Positions 3,685-43,896 of a stretch of DNA of 64,000 nt are shown here, in pieces. The notes beneath the pieces were generated by a model. It saw only the letters and a list, made by a program, of their open reading frames with translations, did not search any database and was not told the origin of the DNA. This DNA comes from Dudresnaya verticillata (taxonomy: Eukaryota): positions 1,550,001 to 1,614,000 of the forward strand of contig OZ374562.1 of the NCBI GenBank assembly GCA_977862235.1, written 5' to 3'. The translations under genes were made by a program, and so were the position numbers. Every line of letters begins with the position of its first letter. Positions within the stretch are counted from its first letter, which is position 1.

Positions 3685-3690
3685 TCTTTT

Positions 3691-8930: not shown

Positions 8931-8960
8931 CCATTTGCTACTCGCACAAGCAGTAGTGGT

Positions 8961-9135: not shown

Positions 9136-9314
9136 GCGCAACCACTTCTGGTATTAGGCGATTGCCAATCGGGCGCAAAGACTTGTATGGTGGGGGGTTA
9201 CCCTCACCTCTCCGGGGCTCACTCCACAGTGGTGTTGTTCCACTTCCCTCACGCCCGTGGAAGGGGGCTCACACAAATCACGAGATTTTATTGACAAGTG
9301 GCATCACTACGCAA

Positions 9315-11884
9315 TTACACTGCATTCCGCGGGCGCTTTGTTGGTGGCGCCAAGTCAGCCTCCGTATCCTCCTCATTTCCCGCGCTATCCTCCGAGTCGG
9401 GAATGTCCTCACCATACACCCTTGCGGTGATCATTGTGAGTCTCCTACCGGTGTCTGTCATGCGACGACGCAAAGCGCGAATGGTCCGTCGTAGGCGCAT
9501 CAGACGCCCTACCCACAGCACTGCAGCGCTGATAGCCTCGTTTGCCGACGTAGGAAGAGGCATACCTGCATCTCTACACCCGTCGCGGAATCGCTGCAGG
9601 GCAGCCCCATCGACGCGCAACTCCGCTTCGGTCCAACTCGCCATCTCCTTCGGAGTATCCTTCTCTTTGTTGACCGTCACGGGGTAGATATGACGTGGTG
9701 GTCCTCCATCCGGACCCGCAACGACTACGAACATCACGGAGTCACTCGACGCGGGCGACACCAGCTTGGCAACTTCGCTCCGCTTCGGTACATTAGTCTC
9801 CACTGCGATTCCAGGGCGTGTGGTCGCTAATGCCTCCACCTGGTCGGTTCCCACCTGTCGTGTCATCTCCCACTTCGGAGTCTTCTTCTTCCCCGACAGG
9901 ACCCAACTTAGCAGCTGCTGCAGCTACTACCGTGGGCTTCGGACTAACTACCGCCACGGCATCCGCCTCTTTCTCCAACTTGGTGTTCTTGCTGATTTCC
10001 GGTGGGACTACGGACTTCAGGGCCCCGATTGGTGTGGTCGTTGCGGCCACCACCGACGAATCTCCCTGCTTCCCGATCTCAGGTCCTTCAGGAGGAGACT
10101 CCGTTACGGTCTTCTTCCGCAACGAAGTCGTGCGGTCGCCCCACGCCTTGACGGCTTCTACACCAGAGGATGCTCTTGGCACGAGGACCCTAGGGTCATT
10201 TGCTCGTCGATCAACCACACCGGCTCGGGGTCTTCTCCCGATAGGAAATAGGCCATGCCACATCCGGAGTTGAGTGGCGGCACCGACAACACGCGGTCTT
10301 CATCCCAATGGTAGTCGATGAACCCTGGCGTTCGCTCCCAGTTGGTGTTTGCGTGAACCGTGAAGAGATTCTCAACACGCGCCAAGGGGTATTCGGTCCC
10401 CTCAATCAACCGGGCTACTCCAACGTAGTGAATAATGGAAACCACCTTTCCTGGTAGCTTGAATATGCGCCCGCACTCGCCACCTTCCGGATCCGTTCTG
10501 TTCCGCCGGTATGCGCTCCAGTCGGTCATCTTGGTATTGGCTCTCATGCCCCGGTAGGTGACCTGTACCCAAGAGAAAAGGACAAACATTGCCCATTTCG
10601 CTCGGAGTATCGGACCCAACACAGTCAGTAGCGGATCACCAACTGACTTCTCTCCGCCTGGGTGTGCAGCTTGCCAGTCGCGATGCTGGATAAACCGATT
10701 GGAGAAGTACACCACCACCGTCGGAGTTGGCACTTACAGCCAATGTGTGACTTCGTACTCAGCCCACCAATCCGGAGCGGTGCAGTACAATCGACGATGC
10801 GCACCCGGCGGCACCTGGAAAAACTCGTTCATGTTCCAGGTATGGAGTATCGCTATTCAGAGGCGGCGCCCATCTCTACTCCGCAACCGGAGCCGATGCT
10901 CTTTCGCTGCGTCCTCAGCCCACTGTTGCGGATTTCCAAACCAGTGGACGCTTTGGTAGTACGGCTTCTCGTAGCACAGGAAGTCGATACCAACCGGATG
11001 GTCCCGCAGTCGGTGGGCCACCGCCAGCAACCGATACACCTTGTTGGGATAGCCCTCTTCTTCCTCAACCATACGATGTCACAACCGGTTGGAGTTCGCC
11101 CTCTACAATTTGAGTGAATCCACCTGGCTGTCCACATCTCCTCAAGCCGATTCGGGAACCACTTGTTATTGATTAACCCACCGGAGTCTGTGACGGGGCT
11201 ATAGCGACGTCCCTCGAGAGTGCCACCATAGTTGGAAACGAACACCGATACGGGCATGGGGAGGCGAACCATATCGCGCTCCTCTTCGGTACGCTGACGC
11301 CGACCGGTGCGATGATCATATTCCGGACCCGGCCAAGTTCCCTCATCGGTGTAACCCGTTGCGTCCACATGCCCATGGTATCTCCCCGGTGTTCCCGGCG
11401 CGTATGGCAGTGAACTCGACGATGCGCCGCCTACACCCATGTGGAGTGGGGGTGAGGTTACTCCAACTCCAACCTGCCCAACTTGGAGACCCTGCGCATA
11501 CGCCTCGTATCGCCCATACGGAGTTGCTCGACGATAGCCAAGGGACTCGATCGCGGTGTTAACACTTGCCTTTCGAAAGGCCAGGCCGTTGTGCCCCCGG
11601 TCCCATTTGCCGATCCGGAAGCGGAGTTGGCGTCTGTGGAGCCTCGCCATCATCGCGCCGTTGCGGCACCCGCAGGCTACCCCCACGTGCTGGCAGCGTC
11701 GGTGTAGCGCTCGTTGCCACCACAACCCCCGCTATGGTGTCCGCGGGCCCACCGCCTTCTCTCTCTTCTGCCTCCGGCGCAGGAGCCGCCCCCACCGAAG
11801 GTGTACGCCATGTCAGTTGGAAGCGGCCCCGTACGCGGTCAGTGTTACCGCCTGCCATCGCTAGCGGCACACCGGGTTGGACTT
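9315..11884 (-). pseudogene. Antisense accessory ORF of element B (disrupted; probable ATG at 17223 separated by the element C insertion)
   Basis: Minus-strand ORF pieces include YCTAPDWWAEYEVTHWL*VPTPTVVVYF, WVQVTYRGM...RIFKLPGKVVSII, DGCRDAGM...RLRRTIR and a C-terminal PPTKRPR. They resemble the antisense ORFs of C, D and E. Confidence 0.7.
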
Positions 11885-12737
11885 TGTGGTATAGACGCTG
11901 TGCGCAAAACGACTCCGTGGTCTACGTGAAAATAATCGAGAAATACGAATTTCGAAGTGACTCCGTGAATGCGCACGCCACGATGGCAAACGTATTACAG
12001 TGCGCATACTGTGCGCGCGCCACGATGGCATTCGCATTACAGCACGCACGCGATACGAAATCCGTATTTCTCGATAATTCGTCCTCCGGACGAATTCCGA
12101 GCTGACTTCGTGATCGCACGCGCCACGAGGGCATTCGAATTACAGTACGCACCCGATACGAAATCGCTGACACCTTCCTGATTTTCCCGTTGTTTCCCGC
12201 GCGTAACGACACCGAGGCCCACGACGCGCGCGCACCTCCGTATGCATCGCTGGCGCACTTCGTAACCGCCACCATACGTGAGACGACCGTTCGTTGGCAC
12301 CGAGGCCGTTACGAATCATTCGAGTACGAACCGTCTCCCGTGTTGCCGTGTATTCGTGCTCACGTAGTATTACTTAGCCAGTCATCTGGCACAACCTCCG
12401 AGGGTTTCCGGTAAGCGACAAGCACCCGGACCTCGGAGTCTTCGGTAAACGCCTGTTTCTTCGAGTTCGATGTCTTCGTCTTCGTCACCGCATATACGGT
12501 CGAGCCTCGCTTTCGATAGCCCCGTGCAGCCGGAGTCATCCCCGGTAATCGATCGCTCGAGTTCTCCCTTCCGCGCACGAATACGTTGACACCGTGGTCT
12601 TTGTTGGTCGCTCCGTTCTACCACGCTACCACCCCTTTTCCTTTCTCTGTTAGGCTACGAGGCCATTCGTTAGGCTCCGAGGCCATTCCTTACAGTTCGA
12701 GACTTCCCCGCGTCATCGTGGACTTCGTTATACCACA
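11885..12737 (+). repeat. 5' LTR of element C
   Basis: TGTGGTATA...TATACCACA, followed by C and the PBS TGGTCTCCCGACCTAGAA. Confidence 0.93.
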
Positions 12738-12807
12738 CTGGTCTCCCGACCTAGAACGTGGTCCCGAAGTTTCGCATTATTCGTAATTCGTTTCTATCCG
12801 AGACACG

Positions 12808-13239
12808 ATGTCTCACGCTCCGAGTCGTCCCGATTCGCCGGTACCGAAACACGATGACGTACCGATTCCGGAGCTCCCGTTTTTCGACTCGAACGCGAGT
12901 GACCGAGAACCGTTCTCTTGCACTCGCGCTTCACGTATAACGGTACCCGATCTTCGCACCGACTCGCGTTGGCAGGCTCACGGTAGCCAGTCCGACTTTT
13001 CGTATACGTACAATCTGTTGGAAATCGTTCCCTCGGATACCGTCGATCGAATCTTCTCGATGAAGGAAGTCTCCGATGCAGAACTACGTTTACTCTACGA
13101 AGAGGTCATCGACGCGCTTTCCACTGCGTACAGTATCACGCAGCTTTCCATTCGTAATACGCATAATCGAGTTCACGCAGAGTTCGACAATTTCCGTGCT
13201 GGCAAGGTCCTTAGGATCGAAGACTCACTCGAGAGTCAA
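12808..13239 (+). pseudogene. gag: gag N-terminal fragment of element C (continues at 16486-16214 on the minus strand)
   Basis: VSDAELRLLYEEVIDALSTAY...RAGKVLRIEDSL resembles the element D gag N-terminus VSVADLQLLYEETMDSLAEVY...RRGPLASIEDGI. Confidence 0.75.
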
Positions 13240-13984
13240 TGCGCACTGTAATACGTTTGCCATCATGGCGTGCGCATTCACGGGGTCACTTCGAAATTCG
13301 TATTTCTCGATTATTTTCACGTAGACCACGGAGTCGTTTCGCGCACAGTGTCTATACCACACGGCCCCCTCCTCAAGAGCGAACGTCCCGGTCGCGGGTT
13401 ACGAATCACGAATTGGCGTGGCCCGGTTTCCCTCGATGGAGCGCGGAAGGAGTCATCCGAGTGGCGGCGCGGAGATTGCTTCGAGCTCACGTCGTCGCGC
13501 AGCGGTGCCTCAGAGCTTACGAATTTGAATTCGGATCACGTTTGCGATGGGGCCTTTGTATTGGCTAATCACGAAGATATTTCACGTACGTAGAACGGGT
13601 TAGGGCTTCGGCGCCGTCCGTCGACGCGTGCGAGCGCGGATCAGGGAGACGGGGCGCGAGCCGCGTGGGTTATTTCAACTTCGTGTTGCGCTGGGTCCGA
13701 GCCCCTTGCTTCTCCGGTCATCGCGCACACACACAACTCGCTTCAGCTCCTTGGATTTCGGTTTCTTGCGTCTTCCGTCGGCTTCTTCGTCTTGCGCTGT
13801 TGCGTCCGTGCGCATCTCTTCTCGCATCGTTCGCTCCGCTCCGTGGCGTTCGTATTTTTGCTTCGTTGGCCTCGGTGGTTTGCGGTGGTCGGTTGTGGGT
13901 TGCAGGTGTCGGTGTTGGGGCAAGTGTTGCGCGTCCTCCGTGGGTTTCGTTACGGTCAACTTCGTGTCACGTATCCTGCGCGAG

Positions 13985-16144
13985 ATGGTAGACAAGGGTC
14001 TCGAGGAGGGAACCGAGTCCCATGAAGAGCGCGTCGATGCGACTCGTCGTCGCCTCGAGGGTGAGCTTGCTGCTGTCGCGGAACGTGAGGCCTCGGAGCC
14101 TACGCGGGATGTTGCGGTGCCTCCGAGAGCTTCGGGTCCTTCATCGAATATCGCTGGCCCTGCGGCTGACTCCGATGAATACGGGCCACGGACTCTCGCG
14201 ATTCCGCACGTGGTGGACATCGGGGCTTCGGGGCCTTCGTGTGCGGCGGACCTCGGTAGTCCGTACGTATGTTCGGGGGGTTCGAATCCGCAATTCGCGA
14301 ATCGGGGTTGACAGCCGAGTGATTCGTTGGGTACGCCGAAATTCGGGACAAAGAATGAGAGTGCTCCGAGGCTTCCGTCTGCGCAGTTGTACTTCGCGTG
14401 GGATGAGTTCGCGATCTCCGGAGTTACTCACGAAGAGGTTGCTGCCTACGATGGCCGTGTTCGTCCGGATCTTGCTCGCTTTCATGCGCTTTGCGAGGGT
14501 CGCGATGATAACGGAGCTGGTGTCTTTCACGTATTCTGGCCCCGTGGCCCCGTGTACCCGACTCCGATGGGCCTTCCGTGTGACGCCTCCTACATAACCA
14601 AGGTCGACGAGGTTGCTTACGTAGATGCGTGTGCGCGTGTGCTCCTGGCACCGGGTGCGGGTATCGCCGTGGATTCTCCGGTGGTTGCGGTTGCTCGCTT
14701 TCGTGATTACCCGGAGTTCGAGTCCACCGCGGGAAACGTATGGCGTCACGTAGACTCGATTTCTCGCATCCTCGGAGTGCACATGGGTGCCGGAGACTGG
14801 AAGCTGTTTCGTGGCGCGGGCTCGATGCCCGATCGCGTGGATACGAATTCGCGTCTCGATGATCGCGTGCCTCTGAGCATTTTTCCGAGTTCGTTCTGGC
14901 TCGATACCCTGTGTGTTCGGGCCCCCGCGGGCTTAGTCGTGCCACCTCCGAGGGTGATTCGTTACTTCGGTCTCGTTGTCGACCTGTTTGCGGAACATGC
15001 GAAGAAGTGCTTCGTGCGTTTTCGGGATTCCGAATATCGCTTCGAGCTTGGTCGCGCGTTGATTTCGGATGTAACGCAGCGTCAATACGTATGGGTGCTC
15101 GATGTTTCGTTGCGTAGTTTCGTTCGTGATCGTTTGTCGAAATCGTTCTCCGAGGATGGCGGGTATCCGGATCTTTCGCTCCGAGGCTCGGATCGTACGA
15201 TGCTGTTCACGAAGATACTCGCGATTGCCATCGAGGCTGCGGATCGGAGGGAGCTCCAGTCGACTCGTCGCGATTTTCCGACGGTACAGTGGTCCCAAGT
15301 GGTCGGTCACGACGTGGGCTCCGGGGCTTGGTTCGATTGGCGTCACAACCGTCCTTCACGAGGGGGGCACGGTCCGTGAGTTGATCCGTTTTCGCATCCG
15401 AGTGCCGCGGTTCGTGCCATCGGAGGCGAGGTTGGTCCGTTGCCGCGTGTGCCTCGTTCCGTAGCTCCGGGCGTTTCGCCTTTGCTGACTCCGGGGTCAA
15501 CGCTTGGCACCAGGGCCGTTTCGTTGATGCCGATCGCTTCGGGTTCTTCGGTCGCGAGTCTCGAGAAGCGCTGTCCTACGGATGTTCGCACTCTCGACTC
15601 TGTGAGCGATGCGTGTCGCGAAGCGGGCATCTCCCCCGATGGGACTTTTCGGCAGCTGTTGGACGACCTCGGTGGAAGCTTACTTCGCGCGGCCATGGAG
15701 TTGAGTCGCCTTCGTAGGCAGCTTCGTGATCGGGATGCGGAGATAGCGGACCTTCGTCATCGTGTGCGAGACCTCGAGTTGGGCGGCAAGCGTCGGCGCG
15801 AAGATTACGGTTACCCGAGTTACGATGCTTCGCGTTACGGGTCTGGCTCCGGAGGCCCTTCCGGCTTCGGACCCAGCGGTGGCGACGGTTACGATGGTCA
15901 CCGCGGACAATCGCAGACATCGGATCCGTATGCGCCGAACTTTATTCGCGTGACTCGAGATGAAAACGGAAACGATCCTCGTGATAGCCCGCCTTACGAC
16001 TCCGCGAACCCGTATGGCCCGGCTCGAGCGGTCCCTAGTGCCAGAACGATGACACGGGTCCCGCGAGCAATAACGGATTTTCGATTACGGGTCCTCCGGG
16101 GGACATCGGTGGTTGAAGTGAAGCTCGGAACACTGCGGGGTTAA
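13985..16144 (+). pseudogene. Antisense accessory ORF of element C (now on + because of the inversion; two in-frame TGA stops)
   Basis: ORFs 13985-14311, 14327-15379 and 15440-16144 share one frame. RILGVHMGAGDW...SIFPSSFW...PAGLVVPPPRVIRYF...SEYRFELGRALISD...WVLD is clearly homologous to the element D ORF. Confidence 0.85.
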
Positions 16145-16486
16145 TACGGGGTTGTCGGAGGCATCGGTTGCCTGATGCGATAAAGGGTGCGGGGACTGAT
16201 TCGGATACGTGTTTTACGGCAACGTAGATTGGGCACCTGGGCCTTGCACGGGTTGAACTAGCGGCGAATTGCGGGGGTCAGGACGGGCATCAGAACGATC
16301 TTCGCGACTTCGAGCCTTTTCCTTCGGTAACGCTGCGGACACGATGTCACGAAGAGCGTTCAACTGTTCCTCCGTAAACGCGTGCGAGCTGCGAAAGGGA
16401 AGCGAGTGACTCTCCTTGCCCACGGGGGAGGTCGCGTCGCGCTCGAGCACAAGGAAACGGGTGCTGACTGCCGAGACGAGATCCCG

Positions 16487-17214
16487 GCGCGCCACGATGG
16501 CATTCGCATTACAGCACGCACGCGATACGAAATCCGTATTTCTCGATAATTCGTCCTCCGGACGAATTCAGAGCTGACTTCGTGATCGCACGACCCACGA
16601 GGGCATTCGAATTACAGTACGCACCCGATACGAAATCGCTGACACCTTCCTGATTTTCCCGTTGTTTCCCGCGCGTAACGGCACCGAGGCCCACGACGCG
16701 CGCGCACCTCCGAATGCAACGCTGGCGCACTTCGTAACTGCCACCATACGTGAGACGACCGTTCGTTGGCACCGAGGCCGCTACGAATCATTCGAGTACG
16801 AACCGTCTCCCGCGTTGACGTGTATTCGTGCTCACGTAGTATTACTTAGCCAGTCATCTGGAACAACCTCCGAGAGTTTTCGATAAGTGACAAGCACCCG
16901 GACCTCGGAGTCTTCAGTAAACGCCTGTTTCTTCGAGTTCGATGTCTTCGTCTTCGTCACCGCATATACGGTCGAGCCTCACTTTCGATAGCCCCGTGCA
17001 CCCGGAGTCATCCCCGGTAATCGATCGCTCGAGTTCTCCCTTCCGCACACGAACACGTTGACACCGTGGTCCTTCGTGTTCGTCGTTCCACTCTACCACG
17101 CTATCACCGCTTTTCCTTTCTCTGTTAGGCTACGAGGCCATTCATTAGGCTTCGAGGCTATTCCTTACAGTTCGAGACTTCCCCGCGTCTCCGTGGACTT
17201 CGTTATACAACACA
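16487..17214 (+). repeat. Distal part of the 3' LTR of element C
   Basis: Matches about 12015-12737 and ends at TSD GACTT. Confidence 0.9.
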
Positions 17215-17346
17215 GACTTGCATGTTGGTCGACTTGCTGTGGTGGAGTGCACTGATGATGTTCGGTCCGTTGTTGGATACACCTGAATGGATTTGTAGAA
17301 GACGTGCTGTGGCGAACGAGGATGTGTCGCCATTTAAGGGGGGGTC

Positions 17347-18033
17347 TGTGGTGAAGTCGCCGTTTCGGAGTGCGGACGGTGGGCGAGCTGTCGCGCGACC
17401 GTCGATAACCCGCGCTCTGCTAAGCGCGCGCCAAAAGCCGGAGCGGGAGTGCAGCGACGCAGTAGCACTGTATGCCCTGCTAGAGTCTGCACGCACCACC
17501 AATAGGAGCCAAGTAGTTGCTTTATTTGTAAGTGGGTAATTTTAATGATGCTGTACAGTACGTAGTGTCAGCCGACAAATGAGAACGCCGAGAATGTCCG
17601 CAACGGTGACCGGGACCAGTAGGGCCGGACCCACTTAGTGGACCAGACCCATGGGGGTCTGGCCCACATGGAACGGACCGCCGGGCGTATCTCGCAGTGT
17701 ATTAATGGGTGGCCACCGCGAGTCCTTCAGTAAACGGGTACGCAACCCTGGGGAAAGTGACTTACCCTAAACCCTACCCCCATACTCCTTCACGGTTTTT
17801 CCTCGCCAGCCCCGTGCACGGATTCTTGTTACCTCCGTCCCGGTGTAGCTGGCCTGGCACTGTAACGTCCCCCTTGTCTGTTGCGTCCCTTTACTCCCTA
17901 CAGGTGTTGCCGCTTGAGGTACTCCCTTCGGTCTACGAACTAAGCTCTACCAACCCGGTGCCGTGTGAGATCACTCCTTATTTGGGATTGACTGATCAGA
18001 TCTTCTTACAGGTGTGCCTTTCACTACACCATA
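17347..18033 (+). repeat. 3' LTR of element B
   Basis: Preceded by the PPT AAGGGGGGGTC and collinear with 2996-3684. Confidence 0.92.
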
Positions 18034-18229
18034 TTCATAAAGACATCGGTTAGGAATGAAGCATTTACACCAATAAAGACTGTCATATACGTTTCACGCG
18101 TAGGACAATTGAAACGGAAATTTCCACGGGTAGCACAATTGAACCTGAACAGAACTTGTCAACAATACTGGTAAAGAAACAGCGCATCCTGCAGGGTTAC
18201 AGAAATTTCTATAAACACCTTCTCCTTCT

Positions 18230-18830
18230 GGATTTGTTGTCACGGTGTTGTGTTGCGATTTAACTTGTCAATGGGAAGACCTCTGCCCTCTTCTCTCCTC
18301 GAGCCGAAGACGGGCTGAGATTGATATCACCGGAGTTGCCTACGATGCGACTCCGGGTTCACTCACTGCTCCCAGTGAACGAGCAGGAGTAGCAGCTAAC
18401 CGTAAACCGTAATATCAACTCTACAGTATCCGTGAACAGTATAGCTCAGAATAGTTAGCTGTAGGGACAGGCTTGAACATGTTCCGTCTATGTTACATGT
18501 TCTGGAGCTTGAAGTTGAAATAGCTACTCTAACTTGTAAACTACAGCTCCACTAAAGATAACGGCAGCAGATTATTTGGAACCGCTCTACAACATGCCGC
18601 ATCAGACTTGGGGGATGGAGTTCTACGCTGTAGGTATTAACTCGTACGGCGCTATTGGCGCTGAGGCTCGTCAGGCGTTCCATGCCATTGGCCGCTTTAC
18701 GTCCGAACAGCGAGGGAGTAACCCTTCGGACGAAACACAAGCGCTCACCATTGGAATTATATCTCACCTTCTTCGTTTTCAAGCCCTGGCAATCAATCGC
18801 CGTGGTCTTCCCCTTCAGGTAGGTCCTTGA
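18230..18830 (+). pseudogene. 3' fragment of an RLE-type (CRE/R2-like) non-LTR retrotransposon ORF
   Basis: RAEIDITGVAY...AGVAANRK, then FYAVGINSYGAIGAEARQAFHAIG...IISHLLRFQALAINRR, resembles the C-terminal restriction-like endonuclease region of CRE-clade elements. Confidence 0.6.
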
Positions 18831-18974
18831 GTAGACCGGGCGACCTAGAGCCCTTCAAACCCTACCATAAAGTGTGGCAGTATGGACGCTGTCAGCAGAA
18901 GGGCTTACAGGAGCGCTCTCCTTTTTGTGGGACAGACTGTCCCTTAACCTGGACAGCTGTCCTTTCATCGCTGT

Positions 18975-19060
18975 ACACGTGGATGACACGTGGCACACGT
19001 GGAATACGTGGGGACACGTGGACGACACGTGGCGCCAATTGGACACCTCGTATTGGCTGA
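18975..19060. promoter_or_regulatory. Cluster of G-box-like ACACGTGG motifs plus CCAAT boxes
   Basis: Five ACACGTGG and one ATACGTGG within about 60 bp, then CCAAT and ATTGG. Confidence 0.55.
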
Positions 19061-19346
19061 TTTATGACGCGCCGCTGCGCTCCTACTCACGAACGAGGAG
19101 CACCTCTGCGCTCAGGGTATCGACAGTGCAGCCGGGACCTCGGCTTGCACACCGGCGTATCCGCCACCAAGTGCCCGTAACGGGACGCATTCCCGTATTT
19201 ACATTGTACTGACTTTACTAATCCTTATAACTATAATCACAGACTAACTTAGACCCCCTTTCGGGCTGATAGACTTTTCGGCTGTCAAAGCCTACTTATG
19301 GGCGCCGGAATAGCCGGTGCCCTCAGAATAAACACTCAGCGGAGTT

Positions 19347-20120
19347 TGTAGTATAGACGTCGGGTCGATCCGACGTCTGATACTTGCTGGTCCGAAGCCG
19401 CCACACAGACCCGTCGATGGGTAGCTGTTGGGGTTGGTAGAGCGGTGTCGGCCGCGTGCGCCCCGCAGGTGCGGATCGACGGCGTCGATGCCGGAGCGCG
19501 CACGGGGCGTACCGTACGCGGGTAGGCAGCGGCCGGATCCCAGCGTCCCTGTCGAAGGGCGGCACGAAGCCGACGGAAAGGAAAAGGAAATGGGAAAGCC
19601 TAGCGAGGCAAGGGGAAAAGGGAAACCGCCCGCTGGCGTAAGGCAAAGGGATCGAACCCGAAAAGGCTGGGGGCAAGCTTCGGCGCGAGCTGTTGCTTGC
19701 CCGGTTTACTGAGCCGTCGATGGCCGACGGTCTTAAATACCCTACACTATGTGCACTACGACTACTTCTACAGTAGGTGCGCCCCACAACACCAACGCGG
19801 GAGGTGTGCGAGCGCGCGCCCATACACGTGTCGATATGTCCGGGTAACGGTTACCCGTGGGCGCGCGCGGGGCGTAACGGGCAGCGGCCCTCTCAACGGC
19901 TCGATGCCGGAGAGCGTCACAGGGGCGCGCCGTGTGCGGCACGGCGCGCGGCCGTTGCCGGCAGCAATGCGGTCGACCGCTACTAATTCAACGAAAAAAA
20001 GTAAGGGCACGCTGCCCAACCACGACTCGCCAGCGGGCGTCATCGTGTGCACCATTACAGTGCGGCGCTGCCAGCATACCTTACAGCCGCTGCTGATAGT
20101 GTGCTGACAGCTATACTACA
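19347..20120 (-). repeat. 3' LTR of element D
   Basis: TGTAGTATA...TATACTACA, with about 11 substitutions versus 44804-45577. Confidence 0.95.
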
Positions 20121-20437
20121 CGGCCCCCCCCTCAAGCGTGAGCGCCCCGCTCACGGCCGTTGAGGTTTCCCGGGGCCACGATGGCAATCCCGAGTGGCCG
20201 TTGACAGTGATTGGCACGCGCGCCCGTCGACGGTGTATGCGCGTACCCGCCCGTCTGCGCCGCTGCGCATATAAGGATCAACGCGGAGTCGGCGCTGGGG
20301 AGGTTGCGGGTATCGCTCTCCACGACCACCCCTTCGCCCACACGCTTCAGCACACCAGTGACCGCTGTCGTGTGTGTATCGTGCTACGCCTTCTCCGCCC
20401 CCTTCGCTCGACACGAGTGCCCACGTCGACGTGCGGT

Positions 20438-24560: not shown

Positions 24561-27500
24561 TTATGAGGAGGAGCGAACGGCTTCGAGCCGGTTGGTGTTT
24601 CGCCGCCGCTGCGATGCGAAATAGTGGCTCACCATCTCCTCGGGGAGATGGGAACGTGGCTCCCACGTCGGCTTGCGATAGCCGGTCCACTTCACCTTGA
24701 ACACGAGCGTGCCATCGTCGGCTGTACCGTGGTCAAGGACCTTATCCACCACGAACCGCGGGCCGTCGACGGCTTTGGACGCGAGTTCCTCAGTGGTGGA
24801 TAAGTAGGCGCTGCGCTGCGCAGTATCCTCCCGTAGCGGCGGGGGACAGTAGACGGCGCGGTCCGCTGCGATGCGTTCGACCAAGCCGCCTCTGTCGATG
24901 AGCAGCGTGCGCTTGTCGTTAAGCAGCACGCGGTAGGGCCCTATCGCTGGGCTCTGGAGCTTCTTGGGTTTCTTAACCCTGTCGCTCGCGTCGATGAAGA
25001 CGTAGTCTCCCGCTCGAATGCGGGAGTTGACTTTTCTGACACGCTTGTCGAAGTCTTTCTTGTAACGCCGCTGCGTTTTTTCGAGAGCGCTCGATGCGCT
25101 TGCGAAGGCGGCGTCGAGCCGCTTGAGGAAGTCCGCGCGCACGTCCTCACTAGGTTTCGGTCTGGCCGCTGCCTTATGAAACTTAGTGAACTCCGGCGGC
25201 GGCCGGGACAGCACGAGGCTGAAGGGTGTCGTCCGCGTCGTGCGATGGACATGGCAGTTGTAGGAATACGTCAACGCCGCTGCGTATCGATCCCAGTCGT
25301 CCTGGTGATCGTTGATGTAATTCCTCAACATGGCCATGACGGTCCAGTTGTAGCGCTCAACCTGACCGTTCGCCTGCGGGTGGTAGGCGGACGTGAATAC
25401 GTTGTTCAGTCCGAGGTAGCGGCACACTGCCTGAAAGAACTTAGAGGTGAATTGCTTCCCGTTGTCGGACAACAGAGACCTCGGTGGTCCATAGTGGAAG
25501 ATCCACCTCTCACAGAACGCCACTGCGACGTGGTACGCTGTGATGGTGCGCAGCGGCGCTACTTGAGTCAGCTTCGTGAAGCGATCCGTCATGACGAGCA
25601 GGAATCGCTTTCCTGACTTCGTCTTGGGCAGCGGCCCTAGGATATCGATCGTGAGCGACTCGAGCGGCCTCGTGGCCGGGAACAACTTCAACCGATGAAG
25701 GGACCTCCGCAATCGTATGCGGTTCCTGGCACAGTGCCGACAGTTCCGAACTGTCATGGCTATGTCCGCTGACATGTGTGGCCAGTAGTAGCTCTCGCGG
25801 AGCGTGTAGAACATCCTGTTCTGGCCAGGGTGGCCAGCCAGGAGGGAGTGGTGCGAGAGCGTGAGAAGCCGCGGCTGTAGCGCTTCGGGCACCACTATTT
25901 GCTCCAACGAGGAGATGACGGGGTGACGCCGGCACAAGAGCCTGTCCTCGTCCTCGAAGAAGTGGCTATCCCGTCGACGGGACTGCCGTGCCAACACTGT
26001 TTGGCAAAAAGAGTCGCGCCGCTGCGCATCCACCAATTCCTCGACGGTTATTGGTGAAGGGAGCTTCACCGGTTCGACCCGGGTGAGGTCCGTCGGCTCT
26101 TGGCTCGCGTCGATGCGGCCAAGGTCGAAGAGGTCGACGTCGTCGCAGTCGTCCCGGGCTTCGTCGTCGGCAAGCCCCGGTGGTCGTCGCTGTCCGAGGG
26201 CTCCTTGGCTTCGCTGCCAGTGTCGTCCACTGCAGCCGGTCGATCCGGCGCCTTCCGCGTCGATGCGTTGGCTTGGGACCGCGTGGTCAGCAAGACCGAC
26301 GGTGCCTTGGGTTCGGTACTCGAGGCACCCTCCTTCTGGCGGTCGACCGCCGGGGGGTCATAGGTAGGGATCTCGTCGTCAACCTCCTCTTGCTGCGTCG
26401 AGGCCTCACCAGGCGGGACAGCGCGTCCAGCACCTGGTGTACCCTACCCGGGCGGTACTCGATCTGGAAGTCGAATTTCGCGAGTCGTAACCGCCAGCGG
26501 GTGAGGCGACCGGACGAATCGGTCAAGGACATGAGCCAGCGCAACGCGTCATGGTCGGTTCGTACCGTGAACCGGGTCCCTTCGATGTAGGGACGCAGGG
26601 TTGTGATCGACCACACCACTGCAAAGCACTCGCGCTCCGTGGCCGAGTAGTTTCGCTCCGCTGAGCTTAGTGAGTAAGACCAGTACCCAACGGGGTGTAA
26701 CTGGCCGTCCTCTTGCTCCTGGAGCAGGGCGCATCCGAGCTGGTACGCCGATGCGTCCGTGTCGAGGACGTACGGCTTGCCCTCGCGAGGGAGCCGTAGG
26801 ATAGGAGGCGATAAGAGTGTCGCCCGCAGCGTCTCGAATGCCTCTAGCGCCGCTGCGCTTGGATTATCGAAATCCACATCCGCATCCTTGCGGGTCATAT
26901 CCGTCAGCGGACGAGCGATCTTCGCGAAGTTCCTGACGAAGCGGTGGTAAGCGTTACACGCCCCGAGGAAAGACCTCACTTTGGTTAGGGAGGTCGGGAA
27001 CTGCGCATGGCGGAACGCGTCGATGCTTGTCTTCGCCATGCGTAGTTTCCCCGGCTCGATCACGTGACCGAGGTAGTCCACGCGGGACTGGAAGAAGTGG
27101 CACTTCTTCAGCTTCACAGACACGCCGCCCTTGCGAAGCAGAGTCAGCACGCGGTCTAGGTGACCGACGTGCTCCGCGATCGACCGCGAGAATATGATCA
27201 CATCATCGAGATAGATCAAACAACACTGCCATCTAACTCCGCTGAGTATGATGTCCAGTGCACGCTGGAAAGTCGCAGGGGCGTTCTTCAGTCCGAAGGG
27301 CATCCGCAGATAGCGGAACGTCCCTAGGAACGTCGTGAACGTGGTCTTATCCCTGTCAGCCGCTGCGACAGGGATTTGCCAGTACCCCGCGTTACAATCC
27401 AGCGTGGAGAAAATGGCAGCGTCGCCAAGACTGTCGATACAGTCATCCATGCGTGGGAGTGGGTACGCATCGCTCAGGGTTTTGGTGTTAAGACGTCGAT

Positions 27501-28788
27501 AGTCCACACAAAACCTGAGCGTGCCATCCTTCTTGGGCGCCAGAACGACTGGCGATGCCCACTCCGACGTGGCGGGTTCGATTACCCCTGCACGCAGCAT
27601 GGTCTCGACCTCGTTCTGTACGAGCTTCCGCATAGCGGGGCCCTGTCGATAGGGCATTGAGCGAATTGGCCGCGTGCCGGGTTCCACGTCGATGTGGTGT
27701 TGCGTAGCGGCAATCGTGCCTAGCCTCCCGTCCCACATGGACTGATGCTTCCGAAGCATGGCGAGGACTTCTTCGCGGGTGACCTTGTCTTTGATAGACG
27801 AAAGGTCCACCTGCGACTCCCAGTCCTCGATGGACTCTCTTTTCTCCGCCGCTGCGGTTGCTGCCCCTTGGAGCTTTGTGGGCTCGGGGCCCCTCGCCAT
27901 CGACGGCGTGACTGGGGGGTCGTTGCTCCCCTTACCCCTGGGCCGCTGCCCTTTGTGGGGAAGGGTGGTGATATTCATCACCCTCCCGAACTCTTCCGCG
28001 ACGTCGCGGTCCGGGATTATTAGGGCGACTGGGTTGCGGACCGCATAGCCAACCACGGTACCCTTCGGTAGGGTCCGGGCTTTGTCCGTCCAGTTGCCCA
28101 TGCTAACCCCGAAGGGTCGCCCCGACTCGATGTCGTGCACCCCGTTGGTCAGTCTCACGCCGTGGCGGAACTGCAACGAGGGTTTGGGCTCCGTGTGGAT
28201 TAACCCACTAGCCCCCGACGTCACCGAGACGAGCCTCTGCGAGTAGGCTGGGACAACCACCTGCCTAGCGAGGCGTATGGTGTGGGTATCGTGATCCCAG
28301 TCGAGAAGCTCCCGCTGGTGCTTCTTCGACAAACCCTTCGATGGGTTCTTCGGCTGCGTTGCCGGACCGGTTCCCTCGCTAGGGTTCCTGAGGCTGAGGA
28401 TGGGCACCGGGCCTCCTTTCCTCAGCGTCAGCCTTCTCGACTCGACGTCGATTCCGCGCACGTGCGCATTGATAAACTGCGTGCCTATCAGTACGTCGAC
28501 CGCGAGCGTGTCGGCGACGATGAAAGGCACGCGGAACGTCGTGTTCCCCAACCTCATCGAGAGGTGGACGACGCCGGACAGCCTCAGCGGAGTCTTGTCG
28601 GCGCCTGCCAGGCGTGGCGCGGAGTCGATCTCTGATGCGTTTTCCTCCCAGCCTGCGGGCAGGGCACCTCGAGCGATGAGGTTGTACCCGGAGCCGGTGT
28701 CCATCGCGATGGTGTGGGGTATCATAACCCGCGGGTCCGCACCGAGGGACCCGGACACTCGGTAAATCTCGGAGGACAGGAGGCACAC
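24561..28788 (-). pseudogene. pol: pol of element D (PR, RT, RNase H, integrase, chromodomain), frameshifted near 26300
   Basis: MDTGSG; IYLDDVII; DTDAS; HHSLLAGHPG..CRHC; IDILGP..SDNG..QVERYN; IGPY; FVVDKVLDH..FKVKWTGY..TWEP. Confidence 0.95.
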
Positions 28789-29217
28789 GTACCCATCGGG
28801 GGTAGTGGCCGGCTCTGCGTCGATGCATGGAGCCCCGGTACCCTCGCGTCGAGCGTCGGGTACCGCCTGTCCCGCCGTTGGGGAGCTGCGCCCTTTTCGC
28901 CTAGCCTGCCGCTTGCGTCGACCGCGGCGGCCAGGGTGGCTTGGTACGCGTCGCCCACGACGTCCCGTCGACCGGGACGTCGTTCGTGTCCTTCGAAGCG
29001 CCGCTGCGCTCGACGTGGGGGCTCGCTGCTCCCAACGCCGTCGAAGGTGGAAGGGACGGTGGGTCAGGTGTTGGACAAGACGGTGCGCGCGACCGCACGA
29101 GCAGCGCCGCCTTTATTCTTTTTCCGGATCGACCCGGTCAGAATTATCCTCGGAATCCGAACTTTCGTGCTCGATTCCGATTGGGTGTTTCGTAACCCCT
29201 GAGGCGCCTTGCGTCGA

Positions 29218-31539
29218 TCACGGAGGCGTATCAAAAAGGAGAGGGGACTCGCTTCCCTGCGCGATGGCTGTCTCTCCCTTGTGCCGCGCGTCGAGCCCTT
29301 GCGGAAGCCACTCGTCGGCGGTGAGGCCTGTGTGCTCCTGCACCGTTATAACTGCTCGGAGCAGTTCGCGGCGCGGGTCGGCCCTCGGAGGCGTCGATGC
29401 CTGAGGTTGACGGCCAGCGTGCTCGTCGAAGCCGACCCGCTTATCGCGCAGCAGGAGCCGCGGTGCGTCGCCTTGGCGGTACTCGCGGCGTGGGTCTCGA
29501 CGATCCCCGCGGTACCCCTGCGGCTCTCCGCGGTACCTTGGTGCGTCCATGCGCTGCGGGGGACCTCTCGCGTCGAAGCGTCGGTCTCCACCCCGCGGCG
29601 CATCGTAGCGCCGTGCGGGGCTCCTTGTTCTTGCGCCCGCTGGCGCGCGCTCGTCGATGAGCTGTTGGAGCATATTGCGCGAATGCGGCTGCGTTTCCAT
29701 TCGATGGTTGCAGTTCGCATACGCGCAGTACGTCTGCTGTTCCTTCGTGCGGTACGGGCACGAATACATGATGTGCCCGACCTCGCGGCAGAACCAGCAG
29801 ATGTACCATCCCTGTCGATCAGGGATGACTGCGCGTGCCATCGCCTCCTGCGTTGGAGTGAGCGGTGGTATGCGCTTGGGTAGGACCGCGTCGATGCGTC
29901 CTGTAATGTCGAGGGTCTCGACGGCCTCGGCCGACCCGGCTGTCGATAGCGCGGGTGCGACCATCACGGGTTCGAACCCGTCGGCGTCGGGGTCCACCAG
30001 CATTGTGCTGTCGATAGCAACTTCCCCGCTGGGATAGCTTGGTGGGCCCTCGATGAGCAGTGTACGGCCGCTTGCCGAGCTGCCCCCTGACCTGCCGCGC
30101 CCCGAGGTGTTCGTAGGCTGTGCTGCCTTTGCCGAACGGGTGCGGTAGGTTGTGCCCTCGCTATGGGCACTCCGACGAACGGTACTAAAATTGGTCTGTT
30201 CGACCATAGGCAGCTGCCTGACCCTCTCCGCCACTGCGGGTCTTTTCGTGGGAAGCAGGCCCCGAAGGAACTGATGCGTCAGGTTCTCATCGGAGTATAC
30301 GCCAGCGCAGGCGTCCGCATACCCTTCGAGGCGAGTAGCGAACTCAAGCTCGGACTCGGCGTCCCTCTACTTGGCGGTGGTCAGCCGGTCATGGGCATCT
30401 GCGATGACGTCGTCCGTGACGAACCTCTCGACGAGGGTATTGACCACCGAGGCCCAGCAGGGTGGGGTGCCGCGCTGCGTTGTGCGCACCCCAGAGAACA
30501 GGTGACTCGAGTACACACCTGCGACGCGGTTCCATCGAGGAACCAGGACACCACCCGCGCCGCTGCGCCTTCGGATAGTCCAACGCCATTGAATGCTTGG
30601 CGTAGCTGTCGAAGCACACCAAGCAGGCGAATCGGCTCCTTGCCGTCGAACCGGTCGAGCCGGAGCATCAGGGCCTTCATGCGGCTGACAATCTTCGCAG
30701 TGTTGCCGCTGCACACCTGCTGTTGATTGTCCCGCTGATCTACGTCATCAAGACGGTACGAGCGGTAGTCGATCGCCTTAGCGAACTCTGGCACCAACGT
30801 GGTTAAAGGCTCGATGCCTGCCATGAGTGGGCCCCAATGCCAATAGGCAGAGACGGGGCCCTCGTGCTGTCGGGGGGTCGGTCCCCCCTTTGTGTTTTGC
30901 CCGTCGAGGGCTTGTTGGAGCAACCTGGGGTCGACCCCGTAGAACGGATTGGGGTCCCCACTCGGATGGTGCGACCCCGCCGCACTCCTCGGTGGAGATG
31001 GTGGTGGTGAAGGAAAGTGGTGCCGAGCTCGTTGCTCGGCAAGTATGGCAGCGGCCAATTCTTTAACTGCACCCGCTGGTGACTGCGGTCGCGGAGGAGA
31101 GCGCTGCGCCGACGACGGGCCTGTAGCCCGTTGGCGTTGCCGCGTCGGCGCGCTCTATCAACTCAACGGGGCGGCGTAGCTCATCGAGGAGCCCCTGTGA
31201 CCGGGTTATTCCGTCCTCGATGGACGCCAAAGGACCGCGTCGAAGCGTGTCCAGGTCTTGCTGGCCGTCGGCCTTCGCCTCAGCTATCGAAGCTGTAAGG
31301 TGGTCGTACACCTCGGCTAGCGAGTCCATGGTCTCCTCATAGAGCAGCTGGAGGTCGGCCACCGAGACCAGACTCCCGGCGAGGGCCTTTTGCAGCGCGG
31401 CCCTCCGCTCGAGCCTCACATCGTGTAGAGGAGTACCTGAGACGCCGATGGTACTCAGTATTGAGGTGCGACGCGTCGCGTCCTCAACTTTTCCGGCAGC
31501 GGCCGATGCGGCAGCGGCCGGGTCAGGAGGACTCGACAT
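29218..31539 (-). pseudogene. gag: gag of element D (disrupted)
   Basis: DYRSYRLDD, RFDGKEPIRLL and zinc knuckle CWFCREVGHIMYSC, spread over several frames. Confidence 0.85.
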
Positions 31540-31601
31540 CCTTTACGTCGATCGCGTCGATGCGAGAAGTACTTGGGTCTCGACGACTTCTAGGTCGGGA
31601 G

Positions 31602-32498
31602 TGTAGTGCAAAACGTCTTTGACGGACACTGCCGAGCAGTTCGGGGCTCGGTGGTAGCGACGCCTGCGGCGATGAGTGGCCTTGACGTGGGCGTCTGGTG
31701 GTAGAGCGGTTGACTCGCCTTGGGCGGACTGTAAACGCCCTTGGCGGAAAAGAAGAACAAAAGGAAACAGAAAAGGAACACGTCGAGGACGGGTAGAGAC
31801 GTGGAAGCACGGAGGTAGACGCTTAGCCGTAGGCAGCGGTAAGGTACGCGCGTGCTGAACGGGGAAGTCTGGACCAAGGCCGGCTTGCCGGGGTTTACTG
31901 TGACGTCTGAGACGGATCAACTAAGTACAGGATTACCTAGCGGCGGCGACGCGGATGTACGCGTAATGCGGGAACTCGGGACACGTGTTGTCCCGAGGCG
32001 CGTCTGACAGATCCGTCCGTCATGCAGCCGCGCTCCTGACAGATCACGCGTAGTTCCCCGCGCGAGTCCTTACACCTACACGTGGATCCTTTCCTTACAG
32101 CCGCGCGCGCGCCTCATGGCGCGAGCGATCTCGATCCGTACCGATCCCGATCCAGTCCGGATTCGGGCCAGCGATGCGGATGCGCCAGGCTTACAGGCGT
32201 GTGCCTTACACCCCTTAATCCCGATGTGGGATCCCGATTGGATCCGGATTCGGGCCACGCTTACAGCGAACGTTCCCGCCACTGCGCCACGCGCGCACGC
32301 GTGGCGCCGTACAGTGGCCGGGTTCAGGCGTGCGGTCTGCACGCCCAGTGAGCCGTTCTGGCCCAAGTGGCCAGCGGCATGCGTCGGTGACGTGTTTGCG
32401 CCGCGGGCGGGTTGAGCGCGCCGTTGGCGGTCGTCCGTCGGTAGACGCTGCATATTAACGCTTGAAAGGGAAAACGGGGGACCCCCCCTGGCACTACA
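31602..32498 (-). repeat. 3' LTR of element E
   Basis: TGTAGTGC...GCACTACA, near-identical to 43897-44793. Confidence 0.95.
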
Positions 32499-32960
32499 CG
32501 ACCCCCTCCGAAAACGCAAACACGTCAACCTGCTTCAGCCTGCCTGCCTTCCCGCGTCTGCGTCTCTTCCAGTGCCGATCGTGTCGGTCACCCGCGTCTT
32601 CGCGCCTGCGTTTTCCCGCCCTGGGCGTTGGTTGAGCCCCGTCAAAGACGCACGTTCAGTTGTCCACCCGCCGTTGGCGCAGCAAGAACTCCGTCGAAGA
32701 CGTGTTGTTGACTAACTTCGCCAGTGGCGTGCGTGAAACCCCGTCGTTGACGTCGTATCTTGTGCACGCGTGCGTGCGCTCATCGCCTAGGGCGTTTCTT
32801 TGAGGTCCGCCTTCGGCGTTGTTCAGTCCAGCGTCGTTGACGTGTGCCGTGTTTGCTTCCGCCTTTGGCGTAGTTGACTCCACTGCGGAGTCCGAGACCG
32901 TCGTTGACGTATCGTGTGAAGTCCGCCAGTGGCGTGTGATTACTCAACGTCTCAGACGTA

Positions 32961-35267
32961 ATGGCGCAGTTCACTGGCCTGCAAGTGGCTGCGCCTTCGG
33001 CGGCGCCGGTGTATCCGTCCCCCTTCGACTTCGTCGGGAGGACGCCCCGCAACGATGCGCGATTATTCTCGCGGGCCCCCTGGTTCGACCAGGAGGCCCT
33101 GCGACACGAGGATCTCATCACCCATTACGCTGTGAGCGGATTTTTGCCAGGGGAGTTGCCCCTGGCCGTCGTGTGGACGAACGAGTGGCGCCACCGGTGC
33201 GCCATTCCGCGGGGTTGGCTGCGTATTGCCGCTGGCCAGACGCGTGCAGATGCACATGCGCGTTTCGTCGTCGACGTATATCGGCGGTTTACCCGCTACC
33301 CGGGGTCGGTATTGACGCCCACCGTCTTTGAATTTGACGCAGGGCAGTACCGCACAAATGGCGAGGTGGGTTATGGGGACCGTCTTGGGACGTTGTCGTT
33401 AAGCCATGTGGCTGTTTTGGCTGAGCCGCGGGTGCTTCAGGAGGCTAACCTCCTTGGTGTACGCTTGAAAGCGGATTTCAGATACTTGCATAGGACGGGC
33501 ACCTTCTATTGGGAGCGCTGCGTCCGTTGGGAGTGTGAAACGCGCCGCCGCAAAGGCGTTTTTGTACCGTATCAAGATACGCAGGTTGATCGCATTGAGC
33601 GGGAAAAGTTGCCGCATTGCTTCATTCGCGTCCCGCCGATGTGGCGGGACTTTGAGGTCTGCGAGGGCTTTGCGGCTGAATTGCCTCCGTGTGTCACGTA
33701 TATTGGCTCCGAGTTGCGGACGGATCCGTACTCCCGATGTTGGATCGTATTTTTCACCGAGTGGGTCATCAACGTAACTTACGCATGGATGTGGGAGGTG
33801 TATGATACCTTCCGGCTCTATTATGTGCCGCCACGCGTAGTCAGCCTCCTTGGTGGGCTTGACTTGACCGAAGTGCTGGGTGGTGCCAGGAACTGCCAAG
33901 AGTTCTGGGATTTACGCCATGTGGCGGATAACGTCAACTGGGACGACCCGGTAGCTGTGCCGCCGGGAAACCGGCGCCGTAAGGCAAACCGTCCGTGTTA
34001 CGCGGTGAGTAGGAATCATTCCGCCTGTGGCGATTGGGTATGGTACAACCCGTGGATCAAACGTCTTACGACGGAGAAAATCGCTGAGAGTCATCGTCGA
34101 ACGGACCGCTTCACGCCAGCGAATCACCCACGTGGGTTACGCAAGAATTGCGACTTTTCGGGGGATTTCCCACCCCACTTGAGCGCCTTGATGGCGGAGG
34201 AGGATGCGTTTCACGCTAGCAGCGGACCGGTTAACCCGTCTGGGACGGACGTCGTTACGCCTATGGCGGTTGAGCTTACTGCGGGGGCGTCAGCTCCCGC
34301 GACGATTTCGCCAGCGGCGGTAGGGCCGTCGGCTGTTGTGCCTGTTGGCTTGCCGTCGGTTGCGCCGTTGGATCTCTCGGCTCCCGTCAATGACGGTGAT
34401 GGTGATGCCATCATGGCTGCGCCCATGGCGAGTTCTGCGTCTGCAGTTACGCCTCAAGGCGGCTTGTCTAACGTCGCTGACGGTGCGAATCGCCCTCCTG
34501 CAGTGCCCGAGTGGACTGAGGAGCAGCGCCGCACGGTGCTCGCATTCTTGCGAGCTACCGGTGTCGTCACTGACGGGTCGGGCGGGTCATCCACGACGCC
34601 CCTCGGGCACTCGCTTCTGGCTGCTCTGCAGCCCAGCGTTGCTGCGGTTCCGACGTCGACCGTCGTTGCGACTGCGCCATCTAACGACGAAGGTGTAGCG
34701 TCTAATGACGGAGTGGCGGAAAAGCCTTTGTCGCCTAAGGCGGGTTGTGCGAGTTCGTCCGCCATTGCGTCCACTGACGTTGGTAACAAAAGTCCTCCAA
34801 AGGCGAGTGCGGTGGTAGCGCCTACGGGGGTCCCGCAGGCTCCAGTGGCCTCTTCGTCGGTGACGGTTGTTGATCGTTCAACGCCTTCGGCGGTTAATGC
34901 GGTCCCGTCAACGGAGGTGCCGGGGCCGTCGACTGCGCCCAAGGCGGTTGAGGATGCTCCGCCGCCAAAGGCGCGTGAGCGTCCTGTTGTAGCGCCTAAG
35001 GCGGATAATGACTCTAACGTTGCGCCTATGGCGGTTGACGAACAGTCGTTGCCTAAGGCGGGTTGTGAGACAGGTGCGTCGCCAGCGGCGGGTGTCGTGA
35101 CTTCGACAGCAGTGGTTGTGGCGGGTCCCTTGCGGTCCGTTCCTGCCCCTGCTGCGAGCGTACCGTCGGTGACGGAGGACGACCTCTATGAAGAGGCGTT
35201 AAGAGAGTCCGCCAATGGCGTTGGGGATGATGCTCCACTTGAGCCGTCTGCAACGAAAAAGGCGTAG
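32961..35267 (+). CDS. Intact antisense accessory ORF of element E, 768 aa, unknown function
   Basis: ATG-to-stop ORF opposite to gag-pol. Trp/Tyr-rich globular N-half containing FIRVPPMWRDFEVCEGFAAELPPCVTY...EWVINVTY...RLYYVPPRVVSLL; Ala/Pro/Ser/Val-rich C-half. Confidence 0.85.
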   Translation: MAQFTGLQVAAPSAAPVYPSPFDFVGRTPRNDARLFSRAPWFDQEALRHEDLITHYAVSGFLPGELPLAVVWTNEWRHRCAIPRGWLRIAAGQTRADAHARFVVDVYRRFTRYPGSVLTPTVFEFDAGQYRTNGEVGYGDRLGTLSLSHVAVLAEPRVLQEANLLGVRLKADFRYLHRTGTFYWERCVRWECETRRRKGVFVPYQDTQVDRIEREKLPHCFIRVPPMWRDFEVCEGFAAELPPCVTYIGSELRTDPYSRCWIVFFTEWVINVTYAWMWEVYDTFRLYYVPPRVVSLLGGLDLTEVLGGARNCQEFWDLRHVADNVNWDDPVAVPPGNRRRKANRPCYAVSRNHSACGDWVWYNPWIKRLTTEKIAESHRRTDRFTPANHPRGLRKNCDFSGDFPPHLSALMAEEDAFHASSGPVNPSGTDVVTPMAVELTAGASAPATISPAAVGPSAVVPVGLPSVAPLDLSAPVNDGDGDAIMAAPMASSASAVTPQGGLSNVADGANRPPAVPEWTEEQRRTVLAFLRATGVVTDGSGGSSTTPLGHSLLAALQPSVAAVPTSTVVATAPSNDEGVASNDGVAEKPLSPKAGCASSSAIASTDVGNKSPPKASAVVAPTGVPQAPVASSSVTVVDRSTPSAVNAVPSTEVPGPSTAPKAVEDAPPPKARERPVVAPKADNDSNVAPMAVDEQSLPKAGCETGASPAAGVVTSTAVVVAGPLRSVPAPAASVPSVTEDDLYEEALRESANGVGDDAPLEPSATKKA

Positions 35268-43894: not shown

Positions 43895-43896
43895 GT

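Follow-up and report, generated by a model that had tools for sequence, protein, structure and literature searches.

A third, antisense and probably ancestral gene in a chromodomain-bearing Ty3/gypsy retrotransposon lineage, likely of red algae

RESULTS

A long reading frame beside the 3′ LTR of four retrotransposons

We analyzed a 64,000-nucleotide stretch of Dudresnaya verticillata DNA (assembly GCA_977862235.1, contig OZ374562.1, positions 1,550,001 to 1,614,000; hereafter the window, numbered from its first letter), which contains four long terminal repeat (LTR) retrotransposons, here called B, C, D, and E. B (2996-18031, pol on the plus strand), D (19347-45577, pol on the minus strand), and E (31602-44793, pol on the minus strand) are chromodomain-bearing Ty3/gypsy elements. 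Each has LTRs, a primer-binding site, a polypurine tract, and the domain order reverse transcriptase (RT)-RNase H-integrase, with a PF00385 chromodomain at the integrase C-terminus that scores above the curated Pfam cut-off. C, which lies inside B at 11885-17212, is a pol-less, internally inverted element that still has its LTRs, primer-binding site, and polypurine tract. In all four elements, a long frame begins near the polypurine tract and runs away from the adjoining 3′ LTR.

The E gene (32940-35267, plus strand) is uninterrupted and encodes 768 amino acids from the ATG at 32961, with a conserved core at about residues 45-400 followed by a low-complexity tail. The D gene (20108-22834, plus strand; ATGs at 20237 and 20438) is open for 908 codons from stop to stop, with its core at about 21290-22282. 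An overlapping frame at 22744-23340 (plus strand), with a helical stretch and the motif KRPR, likely holds the tail of the D protein. Measured from stop to stop, the D and E frames have 908 and 775 codons, whereas the longest frames arising by chance in 300 base shuffles per region had 553 and 345. The C gene (13604-16144, plus strand; 846 codons, first ATG at 13985) is interrupted by stops at 14309 and 15377, has its core at about 14390-15376, and shows a coiled-coil pattern and the motif KRRR. The B gene is wrecked by stops and frame changes. Its core (10161-11072, minus strand) contains two in-frame stops, its C-terminal piece (9315-9923, minus strand) has a helical and coiled-coil pattern with KRPR at the end, and its 5′ part, which reaches to about 11731, is disrupted and was left unaligned.

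A preliminary description of this DNA had proposed an open reading frame (ORF) of about 700-950 amino acids, antisense to gag and pol and next to the 3′ LTR, in each element. A gene is indeed present in all four, and it is long and open in D and E; in B and C it is broken. Moreover, the ORF of C, an element without pol, shares its present strand with the gag remnant and is antisense only with respect to the polypurine tract and the LTR start within the inverted segment.

The antisense ORFs belong to one protein family

Direct similarity among the four proteins is limited. BLASTP aligned C with D (30% identity over 309 amino acids, E-value 5e-26) and was silent for the other five of the six pairs, including B and E, which the preliminary description had put in one group. 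We then compared the ORFs using profiles. A first profile, built from external homologues only with C and D left out, scored C at 191, D at 182, and E at 38 bits, while the best of 300 shuffles of E reached 4.6; B scored just 5.9 bits against a best shuffle of 2.6. Narrow profiles left B borderline (20.6 and 25.6 bits versus shuffle maxima of 22.9 and 24.8). A widened profile that never contained B gave it 25.2 bits versus 9.4 for the best of 500 shuffles, and a frameshift-tolerant test of the same profile gave 51.6 versus 32.4.

Profile-profile comparison also joined the groups, as the preliminary description had anticipated. The C/D group matched the E group with 96% probability (E-value 1.6e-9, 224 columns), although the two sets are not fully independent because the E group was gathered with a profile begun from C, D, and E. 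B matched the E group with 93% probability (E-value 2.7e-7) and had no significant match to the C/D group alone. E aligned directly with a locus from outside the window, L007 (28% over 386 amino acids, E-value 3e-29). The four elements were not joined when the profile was built from the C-terminal module. The motifs quoted in the preliminary description were all found at their expected places, and its shared core motif proved to be the best-conserved block of the family: P-x-W...P-x-G...P-x-V-x2-Y, followed by E-W/Y. No column is invariant across subfamilies, and conservation is highest at Pro, Gly, and Trp. On the strength of profile similarity, we assign the antisense ORFs of B, C, D, and E to one protein family, as had been proposed.

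The gene is retained next to related integrases

To find relatives outside the window, we searched 1.84 billion representative proteins with a profile of C and D, which yielded 18 proteins. All 18 are unnamed, and exact look-ups traced them to ENA or Logan. A word-based homologue search was insensitive, returning no matches for D, and an alignment query recovered only 1 of the 18 known relatives. Pattern scans for the accessory protein in viral contigs and in metagenome contigs gave no match, nor did an integrase bait in viral contigs.

We also surveyed 118 integrase-baited loci, comprising the best 80 of 519 metagenome loci (from 10 of the 64 parts of the collection) and all 38 from genome contigs. 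The final accessory profile, obtained after four iterations, matched 42 of these loci, and in 42 of 42 the gene was antisense and located after pol. A local profile detected a chromodomain in 37 of the 42. Of the 31 loci whose integrase was at least 34% identical and whose sequence continued for 2.5 kb or more beyond pol, 23 contained the core. Two of the eight misses (L020 and L028) match the tail of the protein on the antisense strand, L034 is borderline, and the sequence of L086 ends before the core position of its sister L087; the remaining four misses are L002, L048, L058, and L065. With more distant integrases, only 1 of 24 loci matched (L075, 33% identity), and the other three loci with at least 2 kb downstream (L093, L094, and L098) had no core match. 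An extra, divergent copy was found at L017:3984-5114 (plus strand), on the opposite strand upstream of the baited element and ending at its 5′ LTR. Family members are 600-1000 amino acids long, and intact members are unspliced.

In two of the distant-integrase loci, integrase is followed by sense ORFs: L094:7274-9454, with RING plus Tudor domains, and L098:6963-9776, with a weak, env-like match to baculovirus F. Loci L081-L090 are eukaryotic chromodomain retrotransposons on contigs filed in bacterial genome bins, which indicates contamination of these bins with host DNA.

Host assignment relied on Gag. Among 31 matches to the E Gag, the only named relatives were three Agarophyton chilense proteins (54-55% identity), and this kinship makes a red-algal host likely for the window. 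Gag of 20 of the 118 loci matches the same A. chilense proteins, from which we infer putative red-algal hosts for the 118 loci.

The gene is under purifying selection and diverges together with integrase

We estimated the ratio of nonsynonymous to synonymous substitution rates (dN/dS) within four families (20 loci, 44 non-independent pairs, with three saturated deep pairs left out). In the antisense frame, dN/dS ranged from 0.21 to 0.80 with a median of 0.40 and was below 1 in 44 of 44 pairs; the integrase median was 0.25. Because many copies are dead, both values are raised. The accessory gene is thus under purifying selection, with ratios below 1; values near 1 would have spoken against the proposed retention.

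FastTree phylogenies of integrase and of the accessory gene recovered the same groups. Tree distances for the two genes were correlated among 10 family representatives (r = 0.65, a value reached by 2 of 5,000 permutations). The accessory gene evolves faster than integrase, with a distance ratio of 2.5 for the 10 representatives and a tree-length ratio of 2.4 for 15 elements. Because support for the deep nodes of the accessory tree is poor (32-60), vertical descent can be considered clear at the level of the groups but no more than likely at the root.

Predicted structure and composition of the product

We modeled the D core using AlphaFold2 with 20 aligned sequences. The model had a predicted local distance difference test (pLDDT) score of 90 and a predicted template-modeling score of 0.89, and it shows a domain made up mostly of helices, in which a central helix of 30 residues directly follows the motif, and a terminal hairpin. 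The E core was modeled at pLDDT 64 overall, with values mostly of 70-92 over residues 160-300; its helices and strands follow the same order as in D, as judged by order and not by superposition. The product is predicted to have a globular core of about 320 residues, helical for the most part and arranged around a long central helix, with disordered arms.

Neither this fold nor its sequence matched a characterized domain, in line with the preliminary description. In Foldseek searches at an E-value of 0.001, D was unmatched in the PDB and BFVD and E was unmatched in the PDB. VIA-align against 48,161 chains gave best Z scores of 2.9 (root-mean-square deviation [rmsd] 3.5, 91 residues aligned) and 3.3 (rmsd 4.1, 106 aligned). 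These fold searches covered the libraries named here, barely reached D residues 1-72, and, for E, started from a model that is weak overall. ESM Atlas gave no usable match for the D core or the core of P0014, one of the database relatives. Searches of PDB sequences gave a best E-value of 1.5 in one case and nothing in the other, and Pfam, NCBIfam, and PHROGs yielded just weak coiled-coil or scattered sub-threshold matches. The modeled fold is possibly new, although absence from the searched libraries is no proof of this.

The core is rich in Trp and Tyr (7-15 Trp per core), is flanked by low-complexity arms, and has conserved columns of Arg (30 of 32), Tyr (46 of 58), and Glu (39 of 51). No clear transmembrane helix was found by a crude hydropathy scale, the highest 19-residue value among 24 sequences being 1.83. 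Together with the antisense orientation at 42 of 42 loci, this agrees with the earlier judgment that the protein is not env-like.

The C-terminal features are more variable than first thought. By a crude heptad score, a coiled coil was clear (equaled by no more than 3 of 100 shuffles) in 12 of 21 sequences, namely B, C, all seven full-length C/D-type homologues, L087, L089, and L025, where it lies inside the core. It was not seen in the D main frame, E, or seven other loci by this score, and the C-terminal similarity between B and C is weak, being equaled by 9 of 500 shuffles. A K[KR]x[KR] motif is present near the end of B, C, the second D frame, L087, L088, and L089, and E is without it. The coiled-coil module and the tails resembling nuclear localization signals, both attributed earlier to the family, thus characterize certain subfamilies and not the family as a whole. 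One to three D/N-P-Y motifs follow the core in seven of nine C/D-type proteins (P0004, P0006, P0007, P0010, P0014, P0018, and P0019), where they might serve as a docking or import motif.

Architecture of the nested elements

The B LTRs (2996-3682 and 17347-18031, both plus strand) are 90% alike, with the primer-binding site at 3691-3708 and the polypurine tract just before the 3′ LTR. B pol is in pieces (5095-8927, plus strand), in which Pfam identified RT, RNase H, integrase, and the chromodomain. Two 84-nucleotide tandem units lie at 8957-9122, between the B chromodomain and the end of the B antisense gene.

The C LTRs are 95% alike. The 5′ LTR (11885-12737, plus strand) is followed by the primer-binding site (12739-12756) and a short gag-like remnant (12787-13238, plus strand). 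The inverted segment (13239-16486) contains the first 123 nucleotides of the 3′ LTR, the polypurine tract, and the accessory gene, and is without pol; the remainder of the 3′ LTR is at 16487-17212 (plus strand). One breakpoint of the inversion lies within the 3′ LTR, and pol and most of gag are gone. A solo LTR of C's family (about 1116-1959, 89% alike) holds an internal 64-nucleotide repeat. It splits a frame at 428-1183 with a weak tyrosine-recombinase N-terminal match (E-value 0.12), possibly a DIRS-like remnant.

The D LTRs (3′ LTR at 19347-20120 and 5′ LTR at 44804-45577, both minus strand) are 98.6% alike and flanked by the target-site duplication (TSD) GAGTT. The polypurine tract is at 20121-20136, and gag and pol, including integrase with the chromodomain, are in pieces at 24561-31542 (minus strand). 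E inserted at the primer-binding site of D. Its LTRs (3′ LTR at 31602-32498 and 5′ LTR at 43900-44793, both minus strand) are 98.7% alike, with the TSD GGGAG (31597-31601 on one side), a polypurine tract at 32499-32514, and gag and pol at 36471-43805 (minus strand), where integrase with its chromodomain is in pieces.

One 18-nucleotide primer-binding site is common to all four elements, being found in E at 43877-43894 and in D as a split copy (31586-31601 and 44794-44803). Its complement has a C1:G72/A73 pattern, which we take to be that of eukaryotic tRNA-Tyr and not of initiator tRNA-Met. As the preliminary description stated, the LTRs of the four families are dissimilar; self-BLAST found no similarity among them.

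Outside the elements, an uninterrupted ORF at 50202-51311 (plus strand) encodes a C-terminal TIR_2 domain (E-value 3e-20). Uninterrupted ORFs of 531 and 815 amino acids at 46636-48231 (minus strand) and 60015-62462 (plus strand) have no significant Pfam or NCBIfam match and are probably host genes.

DISCUSSION

The gene described here lies between pol and the 3′ LTR, is read away from that LTR, is conserved at the protein level, is tied to pol, and evolves fast. It is likely an ancestral third gene, antisense and protein-coding, in a lineage of chromodomain-bearing Ty3/gypsy retrotransposons that are likely of red algae. Were the ORFs instead unrelated to one another, or non-coding by-products of GC-rich DNA, the lack of BLASTP similarity in five of six window pairs and the non-significant match of B to the C/D profile alone would be expected. 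We consider this exceedingly improbable, as it is already refuted by the shuffle-controlled profile matches, the fixed strand at 42 of 42 loci, dN/dS below 1, and the confidently modeled fold.

Antisense ORFs after pol form a described class, with examples in the plant elements Retand, Grande, RIRE2, and PvRetro13 and in the fungal element Boty, and their function is unknown (PMC7264820). The present gene belongs to the aORF-3R class by its position, strand, and retention in most copies. In plant Ty3/gypsy elements (Retand TRP28 [PF04195], Grande gene23, RIRE2, and PvRetro13), the reports describe the same position and strand, family-wide retention, and, in some proteins, a coiled-coil part resembling that of structural maintenance of chromosomes (SMC) proteins (PMC7264820, PMC11963269). 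Unlike the present family, Retand belongs to a non-chromovirus lineage, and TRP28 is reported only from flowering plants (PMC11963269). Neither PF04195 (Transposase_28/TRP28) nor the plant mobile domain was listed by Pfam at E-values up to 5 for the window cores, 0.1 for 20 members, and 1 for 35 members.

Boty is a chromovirus. Its gene brtn, in Botrytis and Sclerotinia, is likewise antisense and located after pol, in a gypsy element outside plants (PMC7264820), so the earlier view of antisense extra ORFs as a trait of plant Tat/Retand elements was too narrow. As for a Cys cluster, the present family has no conserved Cys columns and no Cys-cluster Pfam match. A 2022 study by Sasaki is said to describe fast co-evolution of VANC with its element. 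VANC of VANDAL is likewise an accessory protein encoded by a transposon, in which a globular domain is combined with a coiled coil; its carriers are DNA transposons of eudicots and its fold is MAIN-like, whereas the present family resides in LTR retrotransposons (PMC13547354). We found no sequence match to VANC and no such entry among the fold-search results, in libraries whose content was not checked for the VANC21 structure. Plavaka PAG1-3 are also accessory genes of red-algal transposons, and PAG1 is reported to have no identified domain (10.1101/2025.02.11.637652); they sit in DNA transposons, and PAG1 was compared with the present family by description only. Full-text literature searches, whose results included PMC12477816, PMC2864245, and PMC2774666, revealed no report of such a gene in gypsy elements of red algae; the searches did not extend to Repbase, GyDB, REXdb, or most subscription journals, and earlier notice may exist in a repeat library. 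Collectively, the gene is a real feature and its product a new protein family filling a slot of a known kind.

By analogy, we tentatively favor the possibility that the product is a family-specific anti-silencing or transcription-licensing factor. A promoter of its own, in or near the 3′ LTR, would make the antisense gene independent of the gag-pol promoter; in maize Grande, the antisense product is found in the nucleus and is expressed from a separate promoter (PMC7264820). The protein would enter the nucleus, in some members via basic tails, and bind there to the element that encodes it or to silencing machinery of the host, restoring full-length RNA. Heterochromatin is a target of chromodomains (10.64898/2026.05.21.726589), and an element steered there by its chromodomain would need silencing relieved. 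Conflict with the host would in turn drive fast evolution of the accessory protein. We suggest this role because the antisense layout is free of the gag-pol promoter, because the chromodomain pulls the element toward silent chromatin, because the protein changes fast, and because Grande gene23 and VANC offer parallels; the anti-silencing factor VANC21 and the Athila domain have been modeled to oligomerize through coiled coils (PMC13547354). The C gene is nearly intact although pol is absent. This would be consistent with an advantage to C's own family, but a single copy cannot tell loss of pol before insertion from loss after it. A fuller version is somewhat unlikely: an ancient red-algal chromodomain retrotransposon lineage would be defined by a third gene whose product, with a new fold, would be an LTR-retrotransposon counterpart of VANC, a sequence- or family-specific anti-silencing factor inherited with pol across red seaweeds and engaged in an arms race with chromatin silencing by the host.

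Several observations weigh against an anti-silencing role. E and most relatives lack the K[KR]x[KR] motif, and no coiled coil is seen in E, L007, or most of the GC-rich families. The core is charge-neutral (in D, for example, 42 Lys plus Arg versus 40 Asp plus Glu) and has no Cys or His among its conserved columns, so nothing points directly to DNA binding. Tandem arrays are the kind of target of VANC, and no shared tandem array was found in these elements; likewise, Pfam listed neither the plant mobile domain nor Transposase_28. Fast evolution would equally fit a protein that is merely less constrained than an enzyme.

Other functions deserve consideration. Co-divergence with integrase would fit a physical partner, as would be expected if the product were a replication-cycle helper like retroviral Rev or Vpr that binds Gag, integrase, or genomic RNA and thereby assists in exporting RNA, assembling particles, or bringing the integration complex into the nucleus. 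Some members have basic tails, and such a role has been suggested for plant antisense ORFs (PMC7264820). However, antisense expression would uncouple the protein from Gag-Pol amounts, and its rate of evolution is about 2.4 times that of integrase; we regard this explanation as somewhat unlikely. Fast evolution under purifying selection, together with an aromatic core of 7-15 Trp and short repeated D/N-P-Y motifs in C/D-type tails that could act in docking, might instead suggest a cytoplasmic suppressor of small-RNA silencing that binds small interfering RNA, Dicer, or Argonaute, as plant-virus suppressors do. This is unlikely given the few WG/GW dipeptides (0-5 per sequence) and a core that is not basic.

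The compact, confidently modeled fold and the conserved Arg (30/32), Tyr (46/58), and Glu (39/51) columns raise the idea of a nucleic acid- or chromatin-modifying enzyme of unrecognized fold, whose active site would be formed by R-x-D, Y, and E-W/Y. Red-algal transposons do carry methylase, SET, and oxygenase accessory genes (10.1101/2025.02.11.637652). Nevertheless, no column is invariant across subfamilies and the best-kept Pro, Gly, and Trp look structural, making an enzyme highly unlikely. Florideophytes and bangiophytes have cell connections, and the protein could conceivably aid cell-to-cell spread via pit connections, although its lack of a clear transmembrane helix (highest 19-residue hydropathy 1.83 in 24 sequences) argues otherwise. 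Alternatively, it could restrain its own element through copy-number control or interference with competitors, since antisense products are often negative regulators (PMC7264820, on antisense RNA). Retention in all major clades is more simply explained by a benefit to spread, and we consider restraint or movement very unlikely.

No function has been established for the extra antisense genes found in LTR retrotransposons (PMC7264820). This family offers a tractable case: the gene is lineage-wide, selection on it can be measured, its product is modeled with confidence and matches no fold in the libraries searched, and uninterrupted natural copies are at hand in E, L007, L087, and L089. The profile lets annotators assign unnamed ORFs of 600-1000 amino acids to transposons rather than to host genes. 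Red-seaweed genomes have grown largely through LTR elements (10.1101/2025.02.11.637652), and the family bears on how red seaweeds silence transposons and on the elements' answer to it.

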